Assembly (NCBI GenBank): GCA_024654525.1 | Contig: JANLHI010000032.1 | Location: 128,172 to 192,171 of the forward strand | Direction of reading: 5' to 3' | Source of the DNA: Patescibacteria group bacterium | Lineage (GTDB): Bacteria > Patescibacteriota > Minisyncoccia > UBA6257 > 2-01-FULL-56-20 | Length of the DNA stretch: 64,000 bases | Shown here: positions 24,623-41,067 of the stretch, piece after piece | Layout: every line of letters begins with the position of its first letter | Numbering within the stretch: position 1 is the first letter of the stretch | Translations under genes and position numbers: made by a program | The notes under the pieces: model-generated | Told to the model about the DNA's origin: nothing | Seen by the model: the letters and a program-made list of their open reading frames with translations, nothing else | Databases searched by the model: none

Positions 24623-25442
24623 TTAGTCCGCGAGGAGGAAATCCCGGGTTGCCTCGTGCGGCCAGGGGAGGGTGAACGGCGTCCTGTGGTCGAGCGCCAT
24701 CCATTCCGACCCGCCCCATTGGTTCAGAATGGGGATGTAGCGGGCAAACCACTCTCCCGGATCATTAAAGGCGACGAGGAAGCAATAATCCGGATTGTTG
24801 AATTTCTGGTTGAATTTCAGGATAAGGCGGAGCGCATCCTCCGCGAGGCGTTCGGGGAAGGCGTCGCGCTTGGTATAGTCAGGCCTTGGATAAATAAGTG
24901 CTTCGCCTGCGCGTACTCCTGTGAGTACGGTTACGAATGCTTCGCTTTCCCAAAGATCAATCATGTCGTTTCCAATTCTGAGTTCTTTTGGCTCGGTGCC
25001 GGGTTGGAGTACATGCCAGTGATGATGCGGGAAGTTTTGCCCCGCGCCGTACCCGACATGGGTAAAAATCCACGTGGGGAACGGGTCGGTTCTTCCACAT
25101 ATCATTTCATCTCGGGCGAACCGAAGTGCGGTAGAAAGCAGCTTTCCCCCCCCCTAAACTCCACAGCGTTATCGCATCCCAACATTCATCGGGAGTGATG
25201 AGACGATGGAATGAGAAAGGGCTGTTGTTGTTCTGAAATCCTTTCCATCTTCGCGAGAGAGAATGCTCGTCAATCTGTGGTTGTGTACAAAGGGGGCAAT
25301 CCTCCCTTTTATGGGGATATTGTGGGCAGTTCATAGGAACTTGCCACGGTCGAACTGTTTTTACTGCCGTCCGTGTCCCGCCGCACAGAGTGAGATGTCC
25401 GCCAATCGTGGTTTGTACCACGCCCTCAAGAGGGATTTTCAT
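24623..25442 (-). pseudogene. galactose-1-phosphate uridylyltransferase-like HIT-family gene, frameshifted at a C9/G9 homopolymer
   Basis: The upstream ORF (25442..25107) carries GalT N-terminal motifs (KTVRPWQ, CPLC). The downstream ORF (25105..24623) carries the HIT/GalT active-site GQNFPHHHWHVLQ (HxHxQ). The two are in different frames, separated by stop - 1 nt - ATG. Extending the downstream frame back shows both frames encode ...GGGK... across the 25146-25154 C9 run, which locates the shift there. Confidence 0.5.
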
Positions 25443-33643: not shown

Positions 33644-34351
33644 ATGAACGAACAATCTTCAGCTCCTTCACGGGATATTCTTGTGCCGATTAGTATTCTT
33701 GTCGCAGGAATTCTCATTGCGGGCTCGGTAATATATGTTGCGGGTCTCAATAATGCTCCTGTGGCACCGGTTACTACGCAGGGGGCGAACGCTTTCGCCG
33801 CAATCCTTACTCCTTTGCCGGATGATGCGGTGTTGGGAGATGAGGATGCTCCGGTGACGATGATTGAATATGGGGATTATCAATGCCCCTACTGCGGAGT
33901 TTTTTTTAACGATATTGAACCCAAGATTCGCGATGAATATGTAAAGACTGGCAAGGTGAAGCTTATATTCCGCAATTTTCAGTTTCTCGGGCCGGAATCG
34001 TATGCCGCAGGGGAAGCTGCGGAATGTGCTCGCGCACAGGGGAAGTTTTGGACGTATCACGATGCATTATATCGCGTGGAAATAGCGGACGAGCATGAAA
34101 ACAATGGGAATTTGACGCGAGATTTGTTTATGCGACTTGCGGAAGAGACCGGATTAGATAGTGTTTCGTTTGGCACCTGTATCGATTCCCATACCTACGC
34201 ATCATTAGTTGAAAGTGAAGTTGAGGGGGGGCGTGCCGTAGGAGTGAATGCCACGCCTACTTCCTTTGTGAATGGCACGTTGATTCGTGGTCTTGCGCAA
34301 AACGATACGCGCGTTATCGATGCAATCAATGCGGCACTCAAAGGTCAATAA
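33644..34351 (+). CDS. DsbA-family thiol:disulfide oxidoreductase (membrane-anchored)
   Basis: N-terminal TM helix, the CPYC active site and a thioredoxin-fold context (MIEYGDYQCPYCGVFF). Confidence 0.6.
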   Translation: MNEQSSAPSRDILVPISILVAGILIAGSVIYVAGLNNAPVAPVTTQGANAFAAILTPLPDDAVLGDEDAPVTMIEYGDYQCPYCGVFFNDIEPKIRDEYVKTGKVKLIFRNFQFLGPESYAAGEAAECARAQGKFWTYHDALYRVEIADEHENNGNLTRDLFMRLAEETGLDSVSFGTCIDSHTYASLVESEVEGGRAVGVNATPTSFVNGTLIRGLAQNDTRVIDAINAALKGQ

Positions 34352-34372
34352 TTTAAAGATTATTAATTATTT

Positions 34373-34609
34373 ATGTCCAACGTAACAATTTACACCACTC
34401 CATCCTGCATTTATTGCAAGATGGCAAAGGATTTTTTCACAAAAAATAATGTTTCGTATAAAGAGCTTAACGTGGCGGAAGACGAGAAGGGACGTGAAGA
34501 GATGATCTCAAAATCTCATCAGCTCGGTGTTCCGGTTATCGATGTTGACGGAGAGATTTTTGTGGGGTTTGATCGTGAGGGGCTCGCAAGAGCATTAAAG
34601 ATTCAGTAG
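34373..34609 (+). CDS. glutaredoxin/NrdH-like redoxin
   Basis: 78 aa with the VTIYTTPSCIYCKMAK CxxC motif and the glutaredoxin-fold ending GVPVIDVDGEIFVGFD. Confidence 0.6.
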   Translation: MSNVTIYTTPSCIYCKMAKDFFTKNNVSYKELNVAEDEKGREEMISKSHQLGVPVIDVDGEIFVGFDREGLARALKIQ

Positions 34610-34684
34610 AAATATAGTGAAGAAGTATGAAGTGGGAAGTATGAATTTTTATTTTTCATTTCCCACTTCGTGTTTTATTGCATC

Positions 34685-35605
34685 ATGTACGATCTTCTTA
34701 TAATTGGTGGCGGACCCGGCGGTGTTGCCGCAGGAATATACGCTGCAAGAAAAAAAATAAAGTCAGTGCTTATTACCGACTCGTTCGGTGGGCAATCGCT
34801 TGTTTCCGCGGATATCCAAAACTGGATAGGAACTAAATCGATATCGGGTTTTGATTTGGCAAAAATGTTTGAGGATCATCTTCGCGCGCAAGAAGATATC
34901 GATGTTATTGATGGTGATTTTATCACTGAAATAAAAGATAGTGGTGATGTGTTTACTGTGTCTACAAAAAAGGGAAACACGTTCGAGGGGCGGCGTCTTC
35001 TCATTACTTCTGGAAGTAGGAGAAGGAAGCTTGGCATTCCCGGGGAGAAAGAGTTTGATGGGAAGGGAGTCGTGTATTGTTCAACATGCGATGCGCCGGT
35101 GTTTAAAGGGAAGACGGTTGCGGTTATTGGTGGTGGTAATTCCGGTCTTGAGGCGACATTGGATTTGTTGCCGTACGCACAAAAAATTTATCTCTTGGGA
35201 AGGAGAGATCATCTAAAAGGGGATCCAGTAACGCTTGAACGTGTGCAAAAGAGCGAGAAAGTAACGATTCTCACCATGGTGGAGTCGCAGGAGATTCTCG
35301 GAGATTTGTTTGTAAAAGGGTTGAGATACATGGATAAGAGAACAAACGAAACAAAAGAGATTGCGCTTGAGGGTGTATTTGTTGAAGTCGGTGCCGTGCC
35401 GAATTCCGAGTTTGTAAAAGGACTGGTTGAAGTGAATGCATTCGGTGAAGTGGTAGTGGATCATAAAACACAACGCACGTCTCACCCGCGAATTTGGGCG
35501 GCGGGGGATGTGTCGGATGTACTCTATAAGCAAAATAATATTTCTGCGGGAGATGCGGTGAAAGCAGTACTGAATATTTATGAAGAATTACAGAAGCAGG
35601 TTTGA
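34685..35605 (+). CDS. trxB: thioredoxin-disulfide reductase
   Basis: YDLLIIGGGPGGVAAGIYAAR FAD GxGxxG motif, the CSTCD redox-active disulfide (CxxC) and the VAVIGGGNSGLEA NADPH site. Start at ATG 34685. Confidence 0.8.
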   Translation: MYDLLIIGGGPGGVAAGIYAARKKIKSVLITDSFGGQSLVSADIQNWIGTKSISGFDLAKMFEDHLRAQEDIDVIDGDFITEIKDSGDVFTVSTKKGNTFEGRRLLITSGSRRRKLGIPGEKEFDGKGVVYCSTCDAPVFKGKTVAVIGGGNSGLEATLDLLPYAQKIYLLGRRDHLKGDPVTLERVQKSEKVTILTMVESQEILGDLFVKGLRYMDKRTNETKEIALEGVFVEVGAVPNSEFVKGLVEVNAFGEVVVDHKTQRTSHPRIWAAGDVSDVLYKQNNISAGDAVKAVLNIYEELQKQV

Positions 35606-35832
35606 CTTTCCACTTAGGCGGGATAGAGCAGAAATATGGTTCTTATTACCATTGAAGAAAAAAATAGAACAGGCGGTGGAGCGCGCGGTATAACGCGCCT
35701 TGCGCGAAGTGCTGATTGACCCCGATAAGGGGCTCAAGGTGCGCTCCTTGTTCGGGAAAAACATCCGAACGTTGCGGAGAAATTGCGCGGCAAGGTCCGC
35801 GATTTTGACGAGGTCGTGCGCTCGCTCTAATT

Positions 35833-36252
35833 ATGGCATGTATGGTGGCTCTGGACTGGAAGTTTGCGTTTACTTCCGCAGGAGAGCGGGACTTGCGGGC
35901 GCTCGATGTACCCATACGAAAAAGAGTTGTGGAGAAACTGGAATGGTTTCGCGATAATTTTTCTTTGGTTATACTTGAGTCCCTTGGCAGTGAGTGGCGC
36001 GGCTATTTCAAGTTACGGGTAGGGGATTGACGGGTGGTGTACGACGTTGATTATGAGCTTTACGCCGTCACGGTTCATCGGATTCAACTTCGTGATAAGG
36101 CGTATAAAAAACAAAGATGGGAGCTCGCACGATTTGCGTTCTTCTTTGCAAAATGGTATAATTTCGCCACGTTCTTTGAAAGTTTACATCGCGGTGAAAA
36201 CCAAGTAGCAGCGAGCTTTGAAAGAACGCCCGCGTCGAGTCCACATTTTTGA
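35833..36252 (+). pseudogene. RelE/ParE-family toxin gene disrupted by in-frame TGA (W/Y codon to stop), with degenerate upstream antitoxin remnants
   Basis: ORF 35833..36030 ends ...EWRGYFKLRVGD, then TGA, then the same frame continues RVVYDVDYELYAVTVHRIQLRDKAY. This is the conserved RelE/ParE C-terminal core (rlRvGdYRviY...hRkdiY) with a stop at the conserved aromatic position. The upstream antitoxin is only readable as pieces in three frames (35636..35830). Confidence 0.55.
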
Positions 36253-36293
36253 ATGGCGGATAGGACGTACATCGAAAGAGAGGAGCTGTCAGT

Positions 36294-37004
36294 ATGACAC
36301 TCTTGTTAAATAAAGTTGCGGATGAACAGAAACGGAAACCCACAGGTCAGGAAAAAGACCAGTTCCTAAAACAGGCTGGCGATTTCCAACGGCGGTTTAT
36401 GGATGGTTCACTTGTGCCCAATCGTGCGCTTGAGACTTGGCAACAAGTTTCGGAGGGATGGGTACTCGGGGAATCAGGGGTACCCGAACCAAAACCCGCC
36501 GAACTTTTCCTCGACAAACCGATCCAGCATCCCCACCTCTCATTCGTCAGCGAGTTCGAGGTGGAAGTCCCCGCGGACTTCGCGCTCGACAGTGTCCCGC
36601 GCACGGCATACTGCCCGAACGGATGGAATGCAAACATCACTGATATCAATTTCCCTCGTATGTCGCTCGTCAAAGGCAAACGATATATGGCGGAAATCTA
36701 TCAGTTGCGGTGCAATAAGAGCTCGGAGTCCATCGTGAAAATTGCGGATGAGCGAAAGCGAGTCCTGCCAGGAGCCTTGGGCGGCGCAGTCCTTACGAGT
36801 CGCTATGGAGAAAAACTCCCGAAAGATTTTTGGGTCGTGTGTTTGGATAAAATCAAAAACCTTTGGCGCGATGGGCACGGTCTCCATGTTCCGATCTTCA
36901 ACTGGAACGACTTCGGCTGGGACTTCAACTTGGACATCTGGAACGGCGACTGGTTTCAGGGCTTCTACATCGTGTTTTTCCGCGAGTTTGTTTCAAATCC
37001 TTAG
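36294..37004 (+). CDS. DGR target (variable) protein; C-terminal ~40 aa encoded by VR
   Basis: 236 aa with no signal peptide or TM. The C-terminal WRDGHGLHVPIFNWNDFGWDFNLDIWNGDWFQGFYIVFFREF is encoded by the VR. The variable codons correspond to TR AAC/AAT/GAT/TAC codons. Confidence 0.6.
   Translation: MTLLLNKVADEQKRKPTGQEKDQFLKQAGDFQRRFMDGSLVPNRALETWQQVSEGWVLGESGVPEPKPAELFLDKPIQHPHLSFVSEFEVEVPADFALDSVPRTAYCPNGWNANITDINFPRMSLVKGKRYMAEIYQLRCNKSSESIVKIADERKRVLPGALGGAVLTSRYGEKLPKDFWVVCLDKIKNLWRDGHGLHVPIFNWNDFGWDFNLDIWNGDWFQGFYIVFFREFVSNP
36860..36983 (+). repeat. DGR variable repeat (VR)
   Basis: Aligns without gaps to 37346-37469. The 13 mismatches are VR c,g,t,t,g,g,t,t,t,t (plus c,t,t at the 5' edge), all against TR a. 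Homology ends at ...tttttccgc. Confidence 0.75.
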
Positions 37005-37174
37005 GTTTTGGCTCTCCGAACCTTTGGATATTAATCCTTAGACCCTTGAGTGCTTTGCGCTTGGGGGTCTTTGCGTTTTGGTATACTGTTTTCGGATACT
37101 AGGCGAATATGCGCGCGGTTACGGCTTCGCGCTGCCGAATTCTCGATATGCGCATGGAGAGTTGCGCCGGGTAC

Positions 37175-37196
37175 GCCTGCCTACCGGCAGGCAGGC
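37175..37196 (+). repeat. GC-rich hairpin motif copy (gcctgcc-taccggca-ggcaggc) between DGR VR and TR
   Basis: Shares the cctgcc...ggcaggcagg core with 39361-39378. Confidence 0.45.
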
Positions 37197-37345
37197 TTTG
37201 TGCGAGAGGCATGTGCAATTCGTAAAAAAATTGAAACACTCGGTGCGCCTCGCTAGGTGATTAAAGCAAGAAGTTTAATATCACGAATTCGATACAACTC
37301 CGAGATATGCATTCAAGGAGTGGTGGCGCAGGCGGTGCGGCGCAC

Positions 37346-37469
37346 ACAATGGCGCGATGGGAACGATCTCCATGTTCCGAACTTCAACTGGAACGACTAC
37401 GGCTGGAACTTCAACTTGAACATCTGGAACGGCGACTGGAATCAGGGCAACTACATCGTGTTTTTCCGC
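37346..37469 (+). repeat. DGR template repeat (TR)
   Basis: Non-coding copy of the VR. The core (37351-37469) carries 30 adenines, 10 of which correspond to substituted positions in the VR (3 more at the 5' edge). No non-A position differs. AAC-rich when read in the VR frame (aac x7). Confidence 0.75.
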
Positions 37470-37476
37470 TACTGTT

Positions 37477-37830
37477 TCATTTCTCCTCCCGTACGGAGGA
37501 GTTTTGCTTTATAAGTTGATTATGCCACCCGCCGAGCATCCGTCCCGCTTCCGCAAGCGGTGCGGATAATGCAATATATTTCTTTTCGTCGAGGGCATGG
37601 ATTTCCCACGCGAGCAAAAGGAGGCACTTTCCCGTATCAAGCGCCGTGATTGCATGCTTTACTTCTGGTAGCTTTTCCGTCTTTGGGAGAAAGCAGGCGG
37701 TTACCGTATGCTCGATTGTGGCGATGAGAAGCGCGTCAATCCGCGCGGCAAGCGTGTAACGCGAAGCTTTCGGTATGTGCGGTAGATACTCATGCCAAAG
37801 CTTGTATGCGGAAGTAATTTTGTGAAGCAC
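37477..37830 (-). CDS. Avd-like accessory variability determinant (four-helix-bundle protein), opposite strand
   Basis: 117 aa, basic, predicted all-helical. ...RYTLAARIDALLIATIEHTVTAC...KHAITALDTGKCLLLLAWEIHALDEKKYIALSAPLAEAGRMLGGWHNQL resembles the four-helix-bundle (PF05635/TIGR02436) family to which DGR Avd proteins belong. Sits between TR and RT. Confidence 0.5.
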   Translation of the reverse strand: MLHKITSAYKLWHEYLPHIPKASRYTLAARIDALLIATIEHTVTACFLPKTEKLPEVKHAITALDTGKCLLLLAWEIHALDEKKYIALSAPLAEAGRMLGGWHNQLIKQNSSVREEK

Positions 37831-37868
37831 GATTGGACTCCGTGGGGGGGGGGCTTATAAAGAATCAT

Positions 37869-38915
37869 ATGTTTGAACAGATTATTGCAGTCGAAAACTT
37901 GCTCGCGGCGTGGAAAGAATTTTTGCGCGGCAAACGGACGAAACCCGATATGCAGGAATTCTCCTTGATGCTAATGGACAATATCCTAGCTCTTCACGAG
38001 AAACTACGCAACGGCACCTATCGCCACGGGGAGTACAAACATTTCCGCATTACCGACCCTAAGCCACGTGACATTCACAAAGCCACCGTCCGGGACCGGT
38101 TGCTCCACCACGCTATCCATAGGGTGCTCTATCCCTTTTTCGACCGCACATTCATCGCCGACTCGTTCTCATGCAGGAATGGAAAAGGGACGCATCGCGC
38201 GATGAACCGTTTCCGCATGTTTGCCTATCAAGCGAGCAGGAATCACACTCGCACGTGCTGGGTGCTGAAGTGCGATATCCGCAAATTCTTCGCTTCAGTT
38301 GACCACCATATGCTCATGGAAATTCTCCGTTCCCGGATAACAGATAAAAAGACTCTTTGGTTACTCGGGGACATTGTGGGAAGTTTTTCAAACACAAAAA
38401 TCCCTCGGTTCGCGAACTCGCCACTCCCTTCCCTCTTTCGTTCGCAAGCTTCGGTGGGCTCAGTACGAACGGGAGAACCAGGAGGAATAGGGCTTCCGCT
38501 CGGAAACCTCACGTCCCAGCTTCTCGTGAATGTTTACATGAATGAGTTTGACCAGTTTGTGAAACATCGCTTGCGAGTAAAGTATTACGTCCGTTATGCG
38601 GACGATTTTATAATTATGTCCCAAAATAAGATGTGGCTCGAAACTATCTTGCCAGAAATGGAATCTTTTCTTTGGGGTTGGCTGAAACTTCGCCTGCATC
38701 CCGGCAAGGTGTCCGTTTCCACGATCGCCTCGGGCGTGGATTTCCTCGGCTGGGTGCATTTCCCAAGCCATCGCGTGCTACGAACGGCGACGAAAAAGAG
38801 AATGATGAAAAGAATCTTTGCGCATCCCACGAGCGAAACCTTCGAATCTTATAAAAGCCTTTTATCTCATGGCAACGCATTCGGATTGGAGAAAAAATTT
38901 ATATCAAGCTCTTGA
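37869..38915 (+). CDS. DGR-type reverse transcriptase
   Basis: RT domains are present: RITDPKPRDIHKATVRDRLLHHAI (1-2), SFSCRNGKGTHRA (3), GLPLGNLTSQLLVNVYMNEFD (4, with the DGR-specific [I/L]GxxxSQ motif replacing the group II QGxxxSP), YVRYADDFII (5, YxDD) and LRLHPGKVSV...VDFLGW (6-7). The track ORF starts at TTG 37833. ATG 37869 is preferred; a G10 run lies between them. Confidence 0.8.
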   Translation: MFEQIIAVENLLAAWKEFLRGKRTKPDMQEFSLMLMDNILALHEKLRNGTYRHGEYKHFRITDPKPRDIHKATVRDRLLHHAIHRVLYPFFDRTFIADSFSCRNGKGTHRAMNRFRMFAYQASRNHTRTCWVLKCDIRKFFASVDHHMLMEILRSRITDKKTLWLLGDIVGSFSNTKIPRFANSPLPSLFRSQASVGSVRTGEPGGIGLPLGNLTSQLLVNVYMNEFDQFVKHRLRVKYYVRYADDFIIMSQNKMWLETILPEMESFLWGWLKLRLHPGKVSVSTIASGVDFLGWVHFPSHRVLRTATKKRMMKRIFAHPTSETFESYKSLLSHGNAFGLEKKFISSS

Positions 38916-38939
38916 CAGCCCTTCGCGCGGGGCTATAAT
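38912..38939 (+). promoter_or_regulatory. near-consensus sigma70-type promoter for groES-groEL
   Basis: TTGACA (38912-38917) - 16 nt - TATAAT (38934-38939). Confidence 0.55.
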
Positions 38940-38946
38940 ACTTCCA

Positions 38947-38973
38947 TTAGCACTCTTTAGTCGGGAGTGCCAG
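38947..38973 (+). promoter_or_regulatory. CIRCE-like HrcA operator
   Basis: ttagcactc-tttagtcgg-gagtgccag against the consensus TTAGCACTC-N9-GAGTGCTAA. The left arm is perfect and the right arm has 2 mismatches. Lies between the promoter and the groES start. Confidence 0.6.
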
Positions 38974-38992
38974 ATTAACTTAATATAAGTTT

Positions 38993-39283
38993 ATGCAATT
39001 TAAACCATTGTCTCACCACGTATTCCTTGAGCCTCTTGAGGAAGAAAAGGTGACGAAGTCTGGTATTGTGCTTCCGGAGACGGCTGAGAAAGAAAAGCCG
39101 ATGAGGGGGAAGGTGCTTGCGACGGGTCCGGGTAAGTTGAACGAAAAAGGTGAGCGTGTGCCAATGTCGGTCAAGGTCGGCGACACTGTCCTCTTTAAAA
39201 AATATGGTCCTGACGAGATAGAGATAGAAGGAAAAAAATATTTAGTAGGGGATGAGGATGATATCTTGGCAATTATAGAATAA
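38993..39283 (+). CDS. groES: co-chaperonin GroES
   Basis: 96 aa. ...RGKVLATGPGK...VKVGDTVLFKKYG...IEIEGKKYLV is the canonical Hsp10 sequence. Confidence 0.9.
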   Translation: MQFKPLSHHVFLEPLEEEKVTKSGIVLPETAEKEKPMRGKVLATGPGKLNEKGERVPMSVKVGDTVLFKKYGPDEIEIEGKKYLVGDEDDILAIIE

Positions 39284-39321
39284 CTGAAGTAATCGTTAAT
39301 AACGCGAATTGAGGCAAATAA

Positions 39322-41067
<1,746 letters not shown>

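Follow-up and report, generated by a model that had tools for sequence, protein, structure and literature searches.

The stretch of DNA that we analysed, referred to here as the window, is 64,000 nucleotides long and holds a DGR, made up of a target gene with its VR, a TR, an avd gene on the minus strand, a short gap and a reverse transcriptase (RT) gene (Table 1). The VR lies at the C-terminal end of the 236-aa target ORF, and the VR/TR homology ends at GTGTTTTTCCGC. There are 10 mismatches in the 120-nt VR/TR pair and all of them (10/10) fall at TR adenines. Searching Pfam and NCBIfam with the 236-aa target gave no family match, and an Rfam scan of 36000-39200 gave none either. Of 147 related loci, 121 have an A-biased TR adjoining the 3' end of avd. 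A hairpin and T run similar to those that follow the window's TR are present at this end of avd in 101 of the 135 non-redundant relatives. We infer that the TR RNA is a separate transcript.

Table 1. Coordinates of the DGR and of the features around its repeat (positions in the window).
Feature	Position	Strand	Remarks
DGR target gene, 236 aa	36294..37004	+	ORF; VR in the 3' end
VR	36864-36983	+	120 nt, paired with TR
TR	37350..37469	+	120 nt, paired with VR
avd body, 117 aa, predicted four-helix bundle	37477..37830	-	start GTG 37830; from profiles and model
Terminator-like hairpin, CTCCTCCCGTACGGAGGAG then TTTTGCTTT	37483..37510	+	directly after TR, over the last opposite-strand avd codons
avd leader ORF as assembled, 55 aa	37701..37868	-	ATG 37868-37866, MILYK then C10; out of the avd frame
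GGAG, possible Shine-Dalgarno	37838..37841	-	7 nt upstream of GTG 37830; read from sequence
Simple sequence repeat, G10 (RT strand) or C10 (avd strand)	37844..37853		conserved position
CATATG	37866..37871		leader ATG (-) and RT ATG (+) back to back
DGR reverse transcriptase, 348 aa	37869..38915	+	Pfam RVT_1, E=4e-24

The RT has roughly 8,000 homologues, thousands of them in Patescibacteria, and all of the close ones are located in TR/VR cassettes. The profile libraries we used hold no DGR-RT-specific model, and the nearest curated RT models were those of group II and the DRT families, all below cut-off. NCBI protein P0024 is identical to the window RT over 348 aa. Exact-protein look-ups with the window Avd and RT found no second assembly of the locus, and the best match from a metagenome scan was only 67% identical. 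We looked closely at the RT start, which had been placed by an ORF lister at TTG 37833, where the tract would be read as Gly-Gly-Gly. This is true of the sequence, but a tract inside the RT ORF (from TTG 37833, or from GTG 37842) is rejected by the NCBI call and by comparison within the subclade. ATG 37869 is supported as the start: alignments of relatives begin at residue 1-2 of the RT, the closest RT subclade retains an ATG at this position, and one relative (L002) has an in-frame stop immediately upstream of it. In a subclade whose RT lacks a start codon downstream of the tract, the repeat may also lie within the RT frame.

The largest ORF between TR and RT encodes 117 aa and is identical to NCBI protein P0001. 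It comes close to the curated profiles and does not reach their thresholds, with 54.7 bits against a cut-off of 80 for NCBIfam DivGenRetAVD (NF033474, E=1e-14) and 37.7 bits against a cut-off of 40 for Pfam bAvd (PF22296, E=3e-9). Precomputed Pfam annotation of its homologues is PF22296. The AlphaFold model has four helices and a pLDDT of 93.8, and Foldseek aligned it to 4dwl_D (TM 0.79/0.86, rmsd 1.6 A) and also to 8ub7_E and 2gsc, with TM values of 0.79-0.86 for bAvd in 4dwl and 8ub7. bAvd was missed by a sequence-profile search of the PDB and came up in the fold search alone. Because of the profile matches and a confident four-helix model like Bordetella bAvd, we identify the ORF as Avd, a divergent member of the family and not a non-member. 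The original prediction for this stretch had called the ORF Avd-like, which the matches just under the cut-offs and the four-helix model support. Its placing of the minus-strand ORF (37477-37830), the 38-bp gap, the G10 (37844-37853) and the RT ATG (37869) holds as well.

The strand of avd had been taken as a departure from a canonical order of target, TR, avd and RT on one strand. That canon does not stand, and the order in Bordetella-type DGRs is avd-TR-RT. The DGR of Bordetella phage BPP-1 (mtd-avd-TR-brt) shares with the window the adenine-specific TR-to-VR signature, the RT class and an Avd (PDB 4dwl, 8ub7) that is a four-helix bundle, at a TM of about 0.8. It differs in that its avd is on the same strand upstream of TR and a 140-nt spacer RNA precedes brt, while in the window a terminator-like hairpin follows TR, and avd lies antisense between TR and RT. 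To our knowledge the BPP-1 DGR has no repeat. In architecture B3, TR-(avd)-RT, avd sits between TR and RT in reverse orientation, as it does in 90% of CPR DGRs (Wu et al. 2018, PMC5758913). The window agrees with B3 DGRs in having a target/VR, a TR, a reverse-strand avd lying between TR and RT, an RT and a Patescibacteria-specific RT clade, and a B3-type arrangement is common to 152 of 152 related loci. Because B3 is published for CPR DGRs (PMC5758913), the opposite-strand avd is not an anomaly. That study sorts gene order only, and we found no repeat, leader ORF or head-to-head overlapping starts in it. The G tract is the new part.

The G10 is the longest homopolymer in the window. G/C runs of at least 9 occur in three places in the window, with 4 pattern matches against 0.24 expected from dinucleotide shuffles; the two further tracts (G/C9) both fall within coding sequence, where one breaks a 272-aa ORF in two. 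A run of G7-13 is present in the gap between avd and RT in 135 of the 152 related loci, most often as G10, and its polarity is strict, with G on the RT strand in 135 loci and C in none. The background in the flanks is 10 G/C runs of at least 7 per 938,710 nt. In eight loci this spot is taken instead by (GT)n, (GA)n or (CT)n, 17-25 nt long, which amounts to about 8-12 units, as many as in the G runs. We found no trinucleotide repeats or A/T tracts in this role in the gap among related loci. The property common to the mono- and dinucleotide repeats is, judging from these substitutions, slippage and frame shifting and not a particular sequence. Loci without a repeat still show A-biased VR/TR differences.

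The tract had been described as lying in the gap between avd and RT. This is correct for the gap between GTG 37830 and the RT ATG (37831-37868; 38 bp, against a median of about 61 among relatives), but on the avd strand the tract is inside a leader ORF that begins at ATG 37868. The C10 lies 5 codons past this ATG and leaves the leader out of phase with avd; in silico, C8 or C11 gives a leader-Avd fusion of 129/130 aa. The C-run in the leader codes for Pro-Pro-Pro, with MILYKPPPPRSPIVLHK as the predicted junction in the window's C11 form, and the dinucleotide versions code for HT, RE or SL repeats, not Pro.

The leader ATG shows signs of constraint across the family, where it either adjoins the RT start back to back or overlaps the RT by about 21 nt, and the RT and avd ORFs overlap head to head. 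The back-to-back CATATG of the window also occurs in L001/L082, in L085 and in a phage relative (L185). The RT codon opposite the leader ATG is CAT in 98 loci and CAC in 3, while the His codons elsewhere in the same RT genes are CAT:CAC 967:860 (binomial p=2e-23, per-locus counts). Read from the leader ATG, 95 of 98 loci have an open frame as far as the repeat, compared with 9 and 20 for the other two frames. When the part that overlaps the RT is set aside, the frame is open in 79 of 80 loci, where shuffled sequences give 55+-3.9. Past the repeat, the avd frame runs into the Avd body without a stop in any locus. Codon -2 before the Avd body is Leu, with all six codons used, and codon -1 is Pro, as CCN with a random third base, which points to translation of the stretch past the repeat.

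As assembled, the leader ATG is in phase with avd in 21 of 98 loci, or 37 of the 135 repeat-bearing loci (27%), and the in-phase state is not enriched across repeat-bearing loci. All 5 of the loci without an intact repeat are in phase, against the 37/135 with a repeat (Fisher p=0.002, per-locus counts). A canonical start is found just downstream of the repeat in 78 of 143 loci, including the window. TTG accounts for 57 of 108 Leu codons at codon -2 and 20 of 67 at another Leu position, and this excess suggests that an internal avd start is used in some lineages. Loci that lack a downstream start are no more likely to have an upstream start in frame (Fisher p=0.72), and there is no obvious Shine-Dalgarno ahead of the leader ATG. 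In the window, GGAG and GTG 37830 could possibly serve as a tract-independent avd start. In this clade the annotated starts of avd are probably wrong, and sometimes the gene is not called at all.

In 3 of 11 groups of near-identical loci the tract differs in length between consensus assemblies, although some of the differing alleles are from short contigs, probably of low coverage, and some assemblies may share reads. Repeat length is essentially the sole difference within these three groups, and each has one in-phase and one out-of-phase allele. In one group, with L177 and L178 from a Lake Tanganyika population, L177 and L179 (G10) differ from L178 and L083 (G9) at one position in 1.3 kb, which is the tract; the G9 loci have a 131-aa Avd, and in the G10 loci there is no usable start and the gene caller yields a fragment. 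Another near-identical pair has G10 (L126) and G9 (L129), and L011 and L092 are one GT unit apart. Two further populations are constant at G9, one in 9 contigs and the other in 15 contigs (4 distinct places compared). Comparing the VR between samples in these two stable populations gave no consensus-level differences.

Our best reading of these data, and one we consider fairly probable, is that the tract is a contingency-type repeat that phase-varies Avd and hence the activity of the DGR. Translation on the avd strand would start at the leader ATG (37868 in the window) and cross a short leader and the repeat, and the four-helix body of Avd would be entered only when the length of the repeat joins both parts in frame. 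Slipped-strand mispairing at replication would change the repeat by one unit, and this would toggle ATG-initiated full-length Avd on or off. DGR reverse transcriptases need Avd for cDNA synthesis, as established for Bordetella bRT-Avd, so toggling Avd would toggle retrohoming, and the switch would turn on mutagenic retrohoming in a minority of cells. The data themselves show that the repeat is conserved, where it lies and that it is polymorphic, and they show the conserved ATG, the open leader frame and the logic of the frames; we infer slippage at a useful rate, use of the leader ATG for translation and control of DGR activity by Avd dosage in these organisms. The tract had already been named as a candidate for slipped-strand mispairing, and the comparative data support this strongly. 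Judged by what defines a contingency locus, there is an uninterrupted repeat of at least about 7 units in a 5' coding region or promoter, its length differs between near-identical genomes (in consensus assemblies, some of low coverage), and a change of length alters the product, in silico only. With only 27% of the repeat-bearing loci in phase, the majority of elements would be off in their assembled form; such a fraction is in keeping with a contingency locus, but it agrees just as well with a frame that is irrelevant. In the window the repeat may modulate the expression of Avd rather than abolish it, because GTG 37830 with GGAG may yield Avd independently of the tract.

Phase variation by poly-G/C tracts near 5' coding ends is described for contingency loci of Neisseria, Haemophilus, Campylobacter and Helicobacter (survey in PMC2831843). 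The DGR loci resemble these in having a G/C run of 7-13 or a dinucleotide repeat soon after the start where one unit shifts the frame, in having on and off alleles side by side among close relatives, and in having most copies off. They differ in that the controlled gene is a component of a hypermutation system and not a surface or restriction-modification gene, that the hosts are uncultured environmental CPR bacteria, and that about half of the loci have a downstream start through which the switch may be bypassed. Repeats can also act on transcription, and Haemophilus hifA/hifB have TA repeats between divergent genes. Bordetella fim has a phase-variable promoter with poly-C (PMC1891110). Both fim and hif share with our loci a repeat in a very short region between divergently expressed genes; the difference is that our evidence favours the avd leader frame over promoter spacing, and that the repeats here vary two-fold in bp length.

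A transcriptional role, where the repeat lies in a control region common to two divergent, overlapping transcription units and its length tunes the promoter geometry or the 5'-UTR of RT and/or avd, is nonetheless suggested by some of the layout. The gap of 38 bp (median about 61) is too short for two promoters, which means that the 5' regions of both genes have to run across the tract. On both strands, A/T-rich TAnnnT-like motifs are found next to the tract (TATAAA and TATAAG in the window). The terminator-like hairpin after TR implies that RT needs a promoter to itself, and in many loci, the window among them, avd has a start that follows the tract. We think this role is unlikely, given that repeats of 10 bp and of roughly 20 bp cannot share one -35/-10 spacer, that tract length is uncompensated by flanking distances, that a sigma-70 consensus scan finds no promoter, and that the CAT/ATG constraint, the open leader frame and the 5/5 in-frame loci without a repeat would be left unexplained. 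One promoter-spacer model, TTGGAC-17-TATAAA, was picked out by eye and dropped when its -35-like hexamer proved unconserved; the lack of flank compensation and dinucleotide repeats that are twice as long also speak against it.

Slippage could also act at the level of RNA, by polymerase realignment or ribosomal frameshifting, and give a constant low dose of in-frame Avd with no heritable switch. This would suit loci that are mostly out of phase and yet retain the ATG, the leader and an uninterrupted repeat, as well as one population whose 9 contigs all have an identical tract and another where this is so for 15 contigs (4 distinct places compared). We regard it as improbable: near-identical populations differ in length at the DNA level, 27% of loci are in phase, and slippage by bacterial RNA polymerase is documented mainly on A/T runs, unlike the G/C runs and dinucleotide repeats here. 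No less improbable is that the repeat is kept for a property other than mutability, as a poly-Pro linker in the leader of Avd, or as an element between the divergent genes that forms non-B DNA or absorbs supercoils, with the length differences being noise. Poly(G), (GT)n and (GA)n are all classic non-B-forming sequences, the polarity of the tract is strict (135 loci to none) and the tract is stable in some populations. However, G10 is short for a triplex, (GA)n and (CT)n have opposite polarity, and the A-biased VR/TR differences in repeat-less loci indicate that elements worked historically without the repeat. A poly-Pro linker would require an intact frame, but the leader is out of phase in 73% of loci, and the dinucleotide versions do not code for Pro. 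That the tract is an artefact of sequencing or assembly, or a neutral homopolymer that arose by chance, is highly improbable. Homopolymers are error-prone and one relative (L036) has an obvious poly-C and N-run assembly artefact nearby, but 135 loci, drawn from many different projects, platforms and candidate phyla, share the tract and its position, against a background of 10 runs in 939 kb. The comparison effectively refutes artefact and chance, and conservation in 135 independent loci excludes the pure sequencing error that had been raised for the tract.

Viral relatives in IMG/VR (L180, L181, L183-L185) have the same divergent avd and RT with back-to-back starts (CATATG, TCATGG), and differ in having neither the repeat nor the leader extension. 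Their Avd starts at the back-to-back ATG as MNEFD-VP-IF, which resembles the CPR leader MSELN...PPP...LP. The CPR chromosomal version looks like the viral arrangement with a repeat-bearing insertion after about codon 5-12.

We searched the literature, apart from the 2017 study of Paul et al. in Nature Microbiology that is reportedly the main CPR DGR paper, and found no description of a repeat switch in DGRs or of phase variation in CPR. For a receptor gene that works, being rewritten all the time should carry a cost. If our reading of the tract as a contingency repeat is true, a repeat switch on avd would be a simple way of restraining DGR mutagenesis in CPR bacteria, which are the largest environmental reservoir of DGRs. 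Most of these genomes would then be predicted to carry a silent DGR, which matters when activity is inferred from the presence of a cassette. Tract length modulo 3 would be a marker for use with any metagenome, and long reads could tie it to VR diversity. We give about even chances to the broader view that the DGRs of Patescibacteria are under a second hypermutable element that keeps them mostly off and stochastically on in a few cells, which would make target diversification phase-variable and bet-hedged across the radiation.

The region holds a complete DGR (see table), in which VR and TR differ at 10 positions, all of them TR adenines. All coordinates of the original prediction were correct when re-read in the sequence and the ORF listing. 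The G10 ahead of RT is the longest homopolymer in the window, and a G9 pattern has 4 matches there, at three tracts, against 0.24 expected.

Coordinates of the DGR and of the ORFs beside the C9 tract (window positions)
Feature	Position	Strand	Remark
DGR target gene, 236 aa	36294-37004	+	3' end carries VR
VR, 120 nt	36864-36983	+	at end of target gene
TR	37350-37469	+	template copy, 486 nt downstream of VR
avd ORF, 117 aa, GTG start	37477-37830	-	from ORF listing
G10 in the 38-bp avd-RT gap	37844-37853		RT ORF comes next
avd leader ORF, 55 aa	37701-37868	-	ATG 37868, MILYK, C10; out of phase as assembled
Leader/RT start junction, CATATG	37866-37871		leader ATG and RT ATG back to back
ORF, 111 aa	25107-25442	-	one side of C9 tract
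ORF, 160 aa, contains HHHWHV	24623-25105	-	other side of C9 tract

The 117-aa ORF, predicted to be Avd-like, matches NCBIfam DivGenRetAVD (residues 2-103, E=1e-14, 54.7 bits, below the cut-off of 80) and Pfam bAvd (E=3e-9, 37.7 bits, below the cut-off of 40). PF22296 is found on all 23 of its database homologues, and the identical protein in NCBI is named "four helix bundle protein". An AlphaFold model built with 18 homologues as input has four helices (pLDDT 93.8). Among PDB structures it best matches 2gsc (a four-helix-bundle protein), bAvd of Bordetella (TM 0.79/0.86 and rmsd 1.6 A to 4dwl_D) and the Avd chains of 8ub7, a DGR ribonucleoprotein. Profiles and predicted fold agree in identifying the ORF as Avd, and the four-helix-bundle similarity whose absence would have refuted the original prediction is present.

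In Bordetella-type DGRs the order is avd-TR-RT, so target-TR-avd-RT was incorrectly taken as canonical. The avd gene does lie on the opposite strand, but this is not a departure from the norm. We compared 160 related loci, taken from genomes and metagenomes; every named record belongs to Patescibacteria, and many candidate phyla are represented. In all 152 that have both genes, avd lies immediately upstream of RT and on the opposite strand. The arrangement is ordinary and already known as the B3 architecture, TR-(avd)-RT, which made up 90% of the CPR set of Wu et al. 2018 (PMC5758913). Of 147 loci, 121 have an A-biased TR directly adjoining the 3' end of avd. Gene calls for ten related loci (L164-L167, L170-L175) often have avd missed, fragmentary or covered by a long plus-strand ORF, probably due to the lack of an in-frame canonical start, and public avd annotation in this clade is unreliable.

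A terminator-like hairpin of 14 pairs follows the target gene (37040-37070, +), so TR would need its own promoter within 37080-37340. Directly after TR, on the TR/RT strand, a GC-rich hairpin and then a T run (37483-37510, +) overlap the final avd codons. Of 135 relatives, 101 have a comparable hairpin and T run at the 3' end of avd, and the conserved Avd C-terminal tail KQNSP is antisense to the U tract and stem. This suggests that TR RNA is transcribed as a short unit with its own terminator and that the opposite strand constrains the Avd tail. The cassette's neighbours (33644-41067) are a DsbA-like/glutaredoxin/thioredoxin-reductase block on one side and groES-groEL on the other; the related locus L081 (80% identical) keeps them, and the cassette is therefore chromosomal and, in this lineage, vertically inherited.

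A TTG start at 37833, given by the ORF listing, would bring the G10 into the RT coding sequence. In the window this start is unsupported and the evidence favours ATG 37869: the NCBI protein at the locus (P0024) has the corresponding length of 348 aa, relatives align from residue 1-2, and the closest subclade keeps the ATG at the same position. Locus L002 has a stop two codons upstream of it. About 15-20 relatives (L021, L023, L030, L037, L038, L043, L054, L072, L079 and others) have no ATG, GTG or TTG between the tract and the conserved RT N-terminus (...GGG-x-RRIQF-x-H), and their RT frame is open across the tract; L018 and L131 have an in-frame ATG just upstream of it. In that subclade the repeat may also lie within the RT ORF, or the RT start may be non-canonical.

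The avd-RT gap has a median of about 61 bp among related loci, and in 135 of 152 it contains a run of 7-13 G, always with RT on the G strand (G9 in 35, G10 in 54, G11 in 19). The flanks of the same loci have 10 G/C runs of at least 7 within 938,710 nt. The tract's start is 15 nt (interquartile range 14-17) away from the codon that aligns with Avd residue 1; its distance to RT is looser (median 37 nt). At exactly this position eight loci have a dinucleotide repeat of 17-25 nt, with about as many units as the G runs: (GT)n in L011, L092, L066, L104 and L107, (CT)n in L017, and (GA)n in L035 and L139. Of the remaining loci, four have G6, one has an interrupted tract and four lack a repeat; neither trinucleotide repeats nor A/T tracts were found in this role among the related loci. 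The property common to the G and dinucleotide repeats is that they are prone to slippage and that one unit shifts the reading frame.

Repeat lengths were compared in 11 groups of loci with flanks 99.7-100% identical. The repeat differs in three groups and is unchanged in eight, although some variant contigs are short and possibly of low coverage. L177 and L179 have G10 and L178 and L083 have G9, with no other difference across as much as 1.3 kb, VR, TR and avd included; L126 has G10 and L129 has G9; L011 and L092 are one GT unit apart. Each of these groups combines an in-phase with an out-of-phase allele. The gene call in L178 is a 131-aa Avd (P0003), and in L177 only a 55-aa fragment is called because there is no start codon in frame. 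Two unchanged groups are all G9 (9 contigs; 15 contigs, with 4 distinct places compared). The tract is a hotspot, yet not constantly changing at the consensus level. Conserved position and polymorphism uphold it as a slipped-strand candidate, and conservation across loci excludes an artefact, including the sequencing error that had been offered as the other reading.

In L156 (metagenome contig Ga0209541_10067427) the interrupted tract reads GGGGGAGGGG, and VR and TR mismatch at 17 A and 12 other positions; the non-adenine mismatches fit a decaying element. The avd-RT gap of L036 has an N run and then a long poly-C stretch beside a genuine G12; this is an artefact of assembly or scaffolding such as poly-G reads produce.

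Two other tracts lie in the window. A C9 (25146-25154, G9 on the gene strand) separates two minus-strand ORFs, which one base less or two more would fuse into one of 272/273 aa; it looks like a second frameshift-prone tract, out of phase at present. The fused protein has no family in Pfam. A G9 at 2264-2272 is inside a 290-aa FkbM-type methyltransferase ORF (2011-2883; Pfam Methyltransf_21, E=6e-17), just before the SAM-binding VDVGSDIGYY stretch, and this ORF adjoins another methyltransferase-like gene. Such a setting is typical of a phase-variable modification gene.

Upstream of the repeat, the avd strand has an ATG, antisense to the RT codon that directly precedes the conserved T/S-F/Y-E motif. 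In 98 non-redundant loci this codon is CAT and in 3 it is CAC, against 967 CAT and 860 CAC among His codons of the same genes (p=2e-23). Of 98 loci, 95 have the frame of this ATG open as far as the repeat; for the two remaining frames the counts are 9 and 20. Outside the RT overlap (roughly 15 nt), 79 of 80 loci have the ATG frame open, compared with 55+-3.9 in shuffles (maximum 67 in 2000). Some ATG frame is open to the repeat in 132 of 135 loci overall, and after the repeat the avd frame is free of stops in every locus. The two codons ahead of Avd residue 1 behave as coding (Leu via all six codons, Pro as CCN, random third base). These patterns argue that the tract lies within a translated avd leader. 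Most relatives have head-to-head RT and leader ORFs that share 21 nt (ATG...CAATTG...CAT). RT codons 1-7 of L014, L028, L051, L060 and others (ATG AAA ATT CAA TTG AGC CAT) share 21 bp with the leader start on the opposite strand, and the element has dyad symmetry about CAATTG, which may reflect dual coding or a binding site.

Only 21 of 98 loci have the leader ATG in phase with the Avd body (37 of 135 counting any ATG), and in these the ORF has about 135 codons; out-of-phase leaders end a median of 41-50 nt past the repeat. The five CPR loci that lack an intact repeat (L069, L132, L143, L157 and L156) all have the ATG in frame (for example MAQLNFHNENNGLLIPRLLP-ILERT; Fisher p=0.002 against repeat-bearing loci). 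Five viral-contig relatives have a divergent avd and no repeat. In the three whose starts were read (L183-L185), the ATGs of Avd and RT lie back to back or overlap, and MNEFD-VP-IF at the Avd N-terminus is similar to MSELN...PPP...LP in the CPR leader. The CPR form has the look of the viral arrangement after a repeat-bearing insertion into its N-terminal coding region.

In silico, a tract of C11 or C8 in the window would yield a product of 130 or 129 aa that begins MILYKPPP(P)RSPIVLHK.... GTG 37830, the start annotated by NCBI, has GGAG at 7 nt upstream, whereas the nearest relative (L001/L177) has GTA at that codon. The window's Avd may be made from this GTG independently of the tract, in which case ribosomes from the out-of-phase leader would cross that start.

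From these comparisons we consider it fairly probable that the repeat is a contingency-type translational switch of avd. Several results count against this: the in-phase state is not enriched among loci, a canonical start follows the tract in 78 of 143, and TTG is over-used at codon -2. Action on transcription, in a control region shared by avd and RT, is disfavoured, as one promoter spacer cannot accommodate repeats of both 10 bp and 20 bp, and as this action would leave the constraints on the ATG and the leader unexplained. RNA-level slippage setting a low Avd dose and a structural or linker role of the repeat are rivals to the translational switch.

DGRs, Avd, the B3 architecture and repeat-mediated phase variation are each already known. 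The literature open to searching, which omits the main CPR DGR paper, did not yield their combination: a conserved repeat in a conserved avd leader, avd and RT starts that overlap head to head, and alleles that are mostly out of phase, throughout a whole radiation. Bordetella bRT, whose complex with Avd is shown in PDB 8ub7, requires Avd for cDNA synthesis. A contingency-type switch of avd would thus be a switch of DGR activity.
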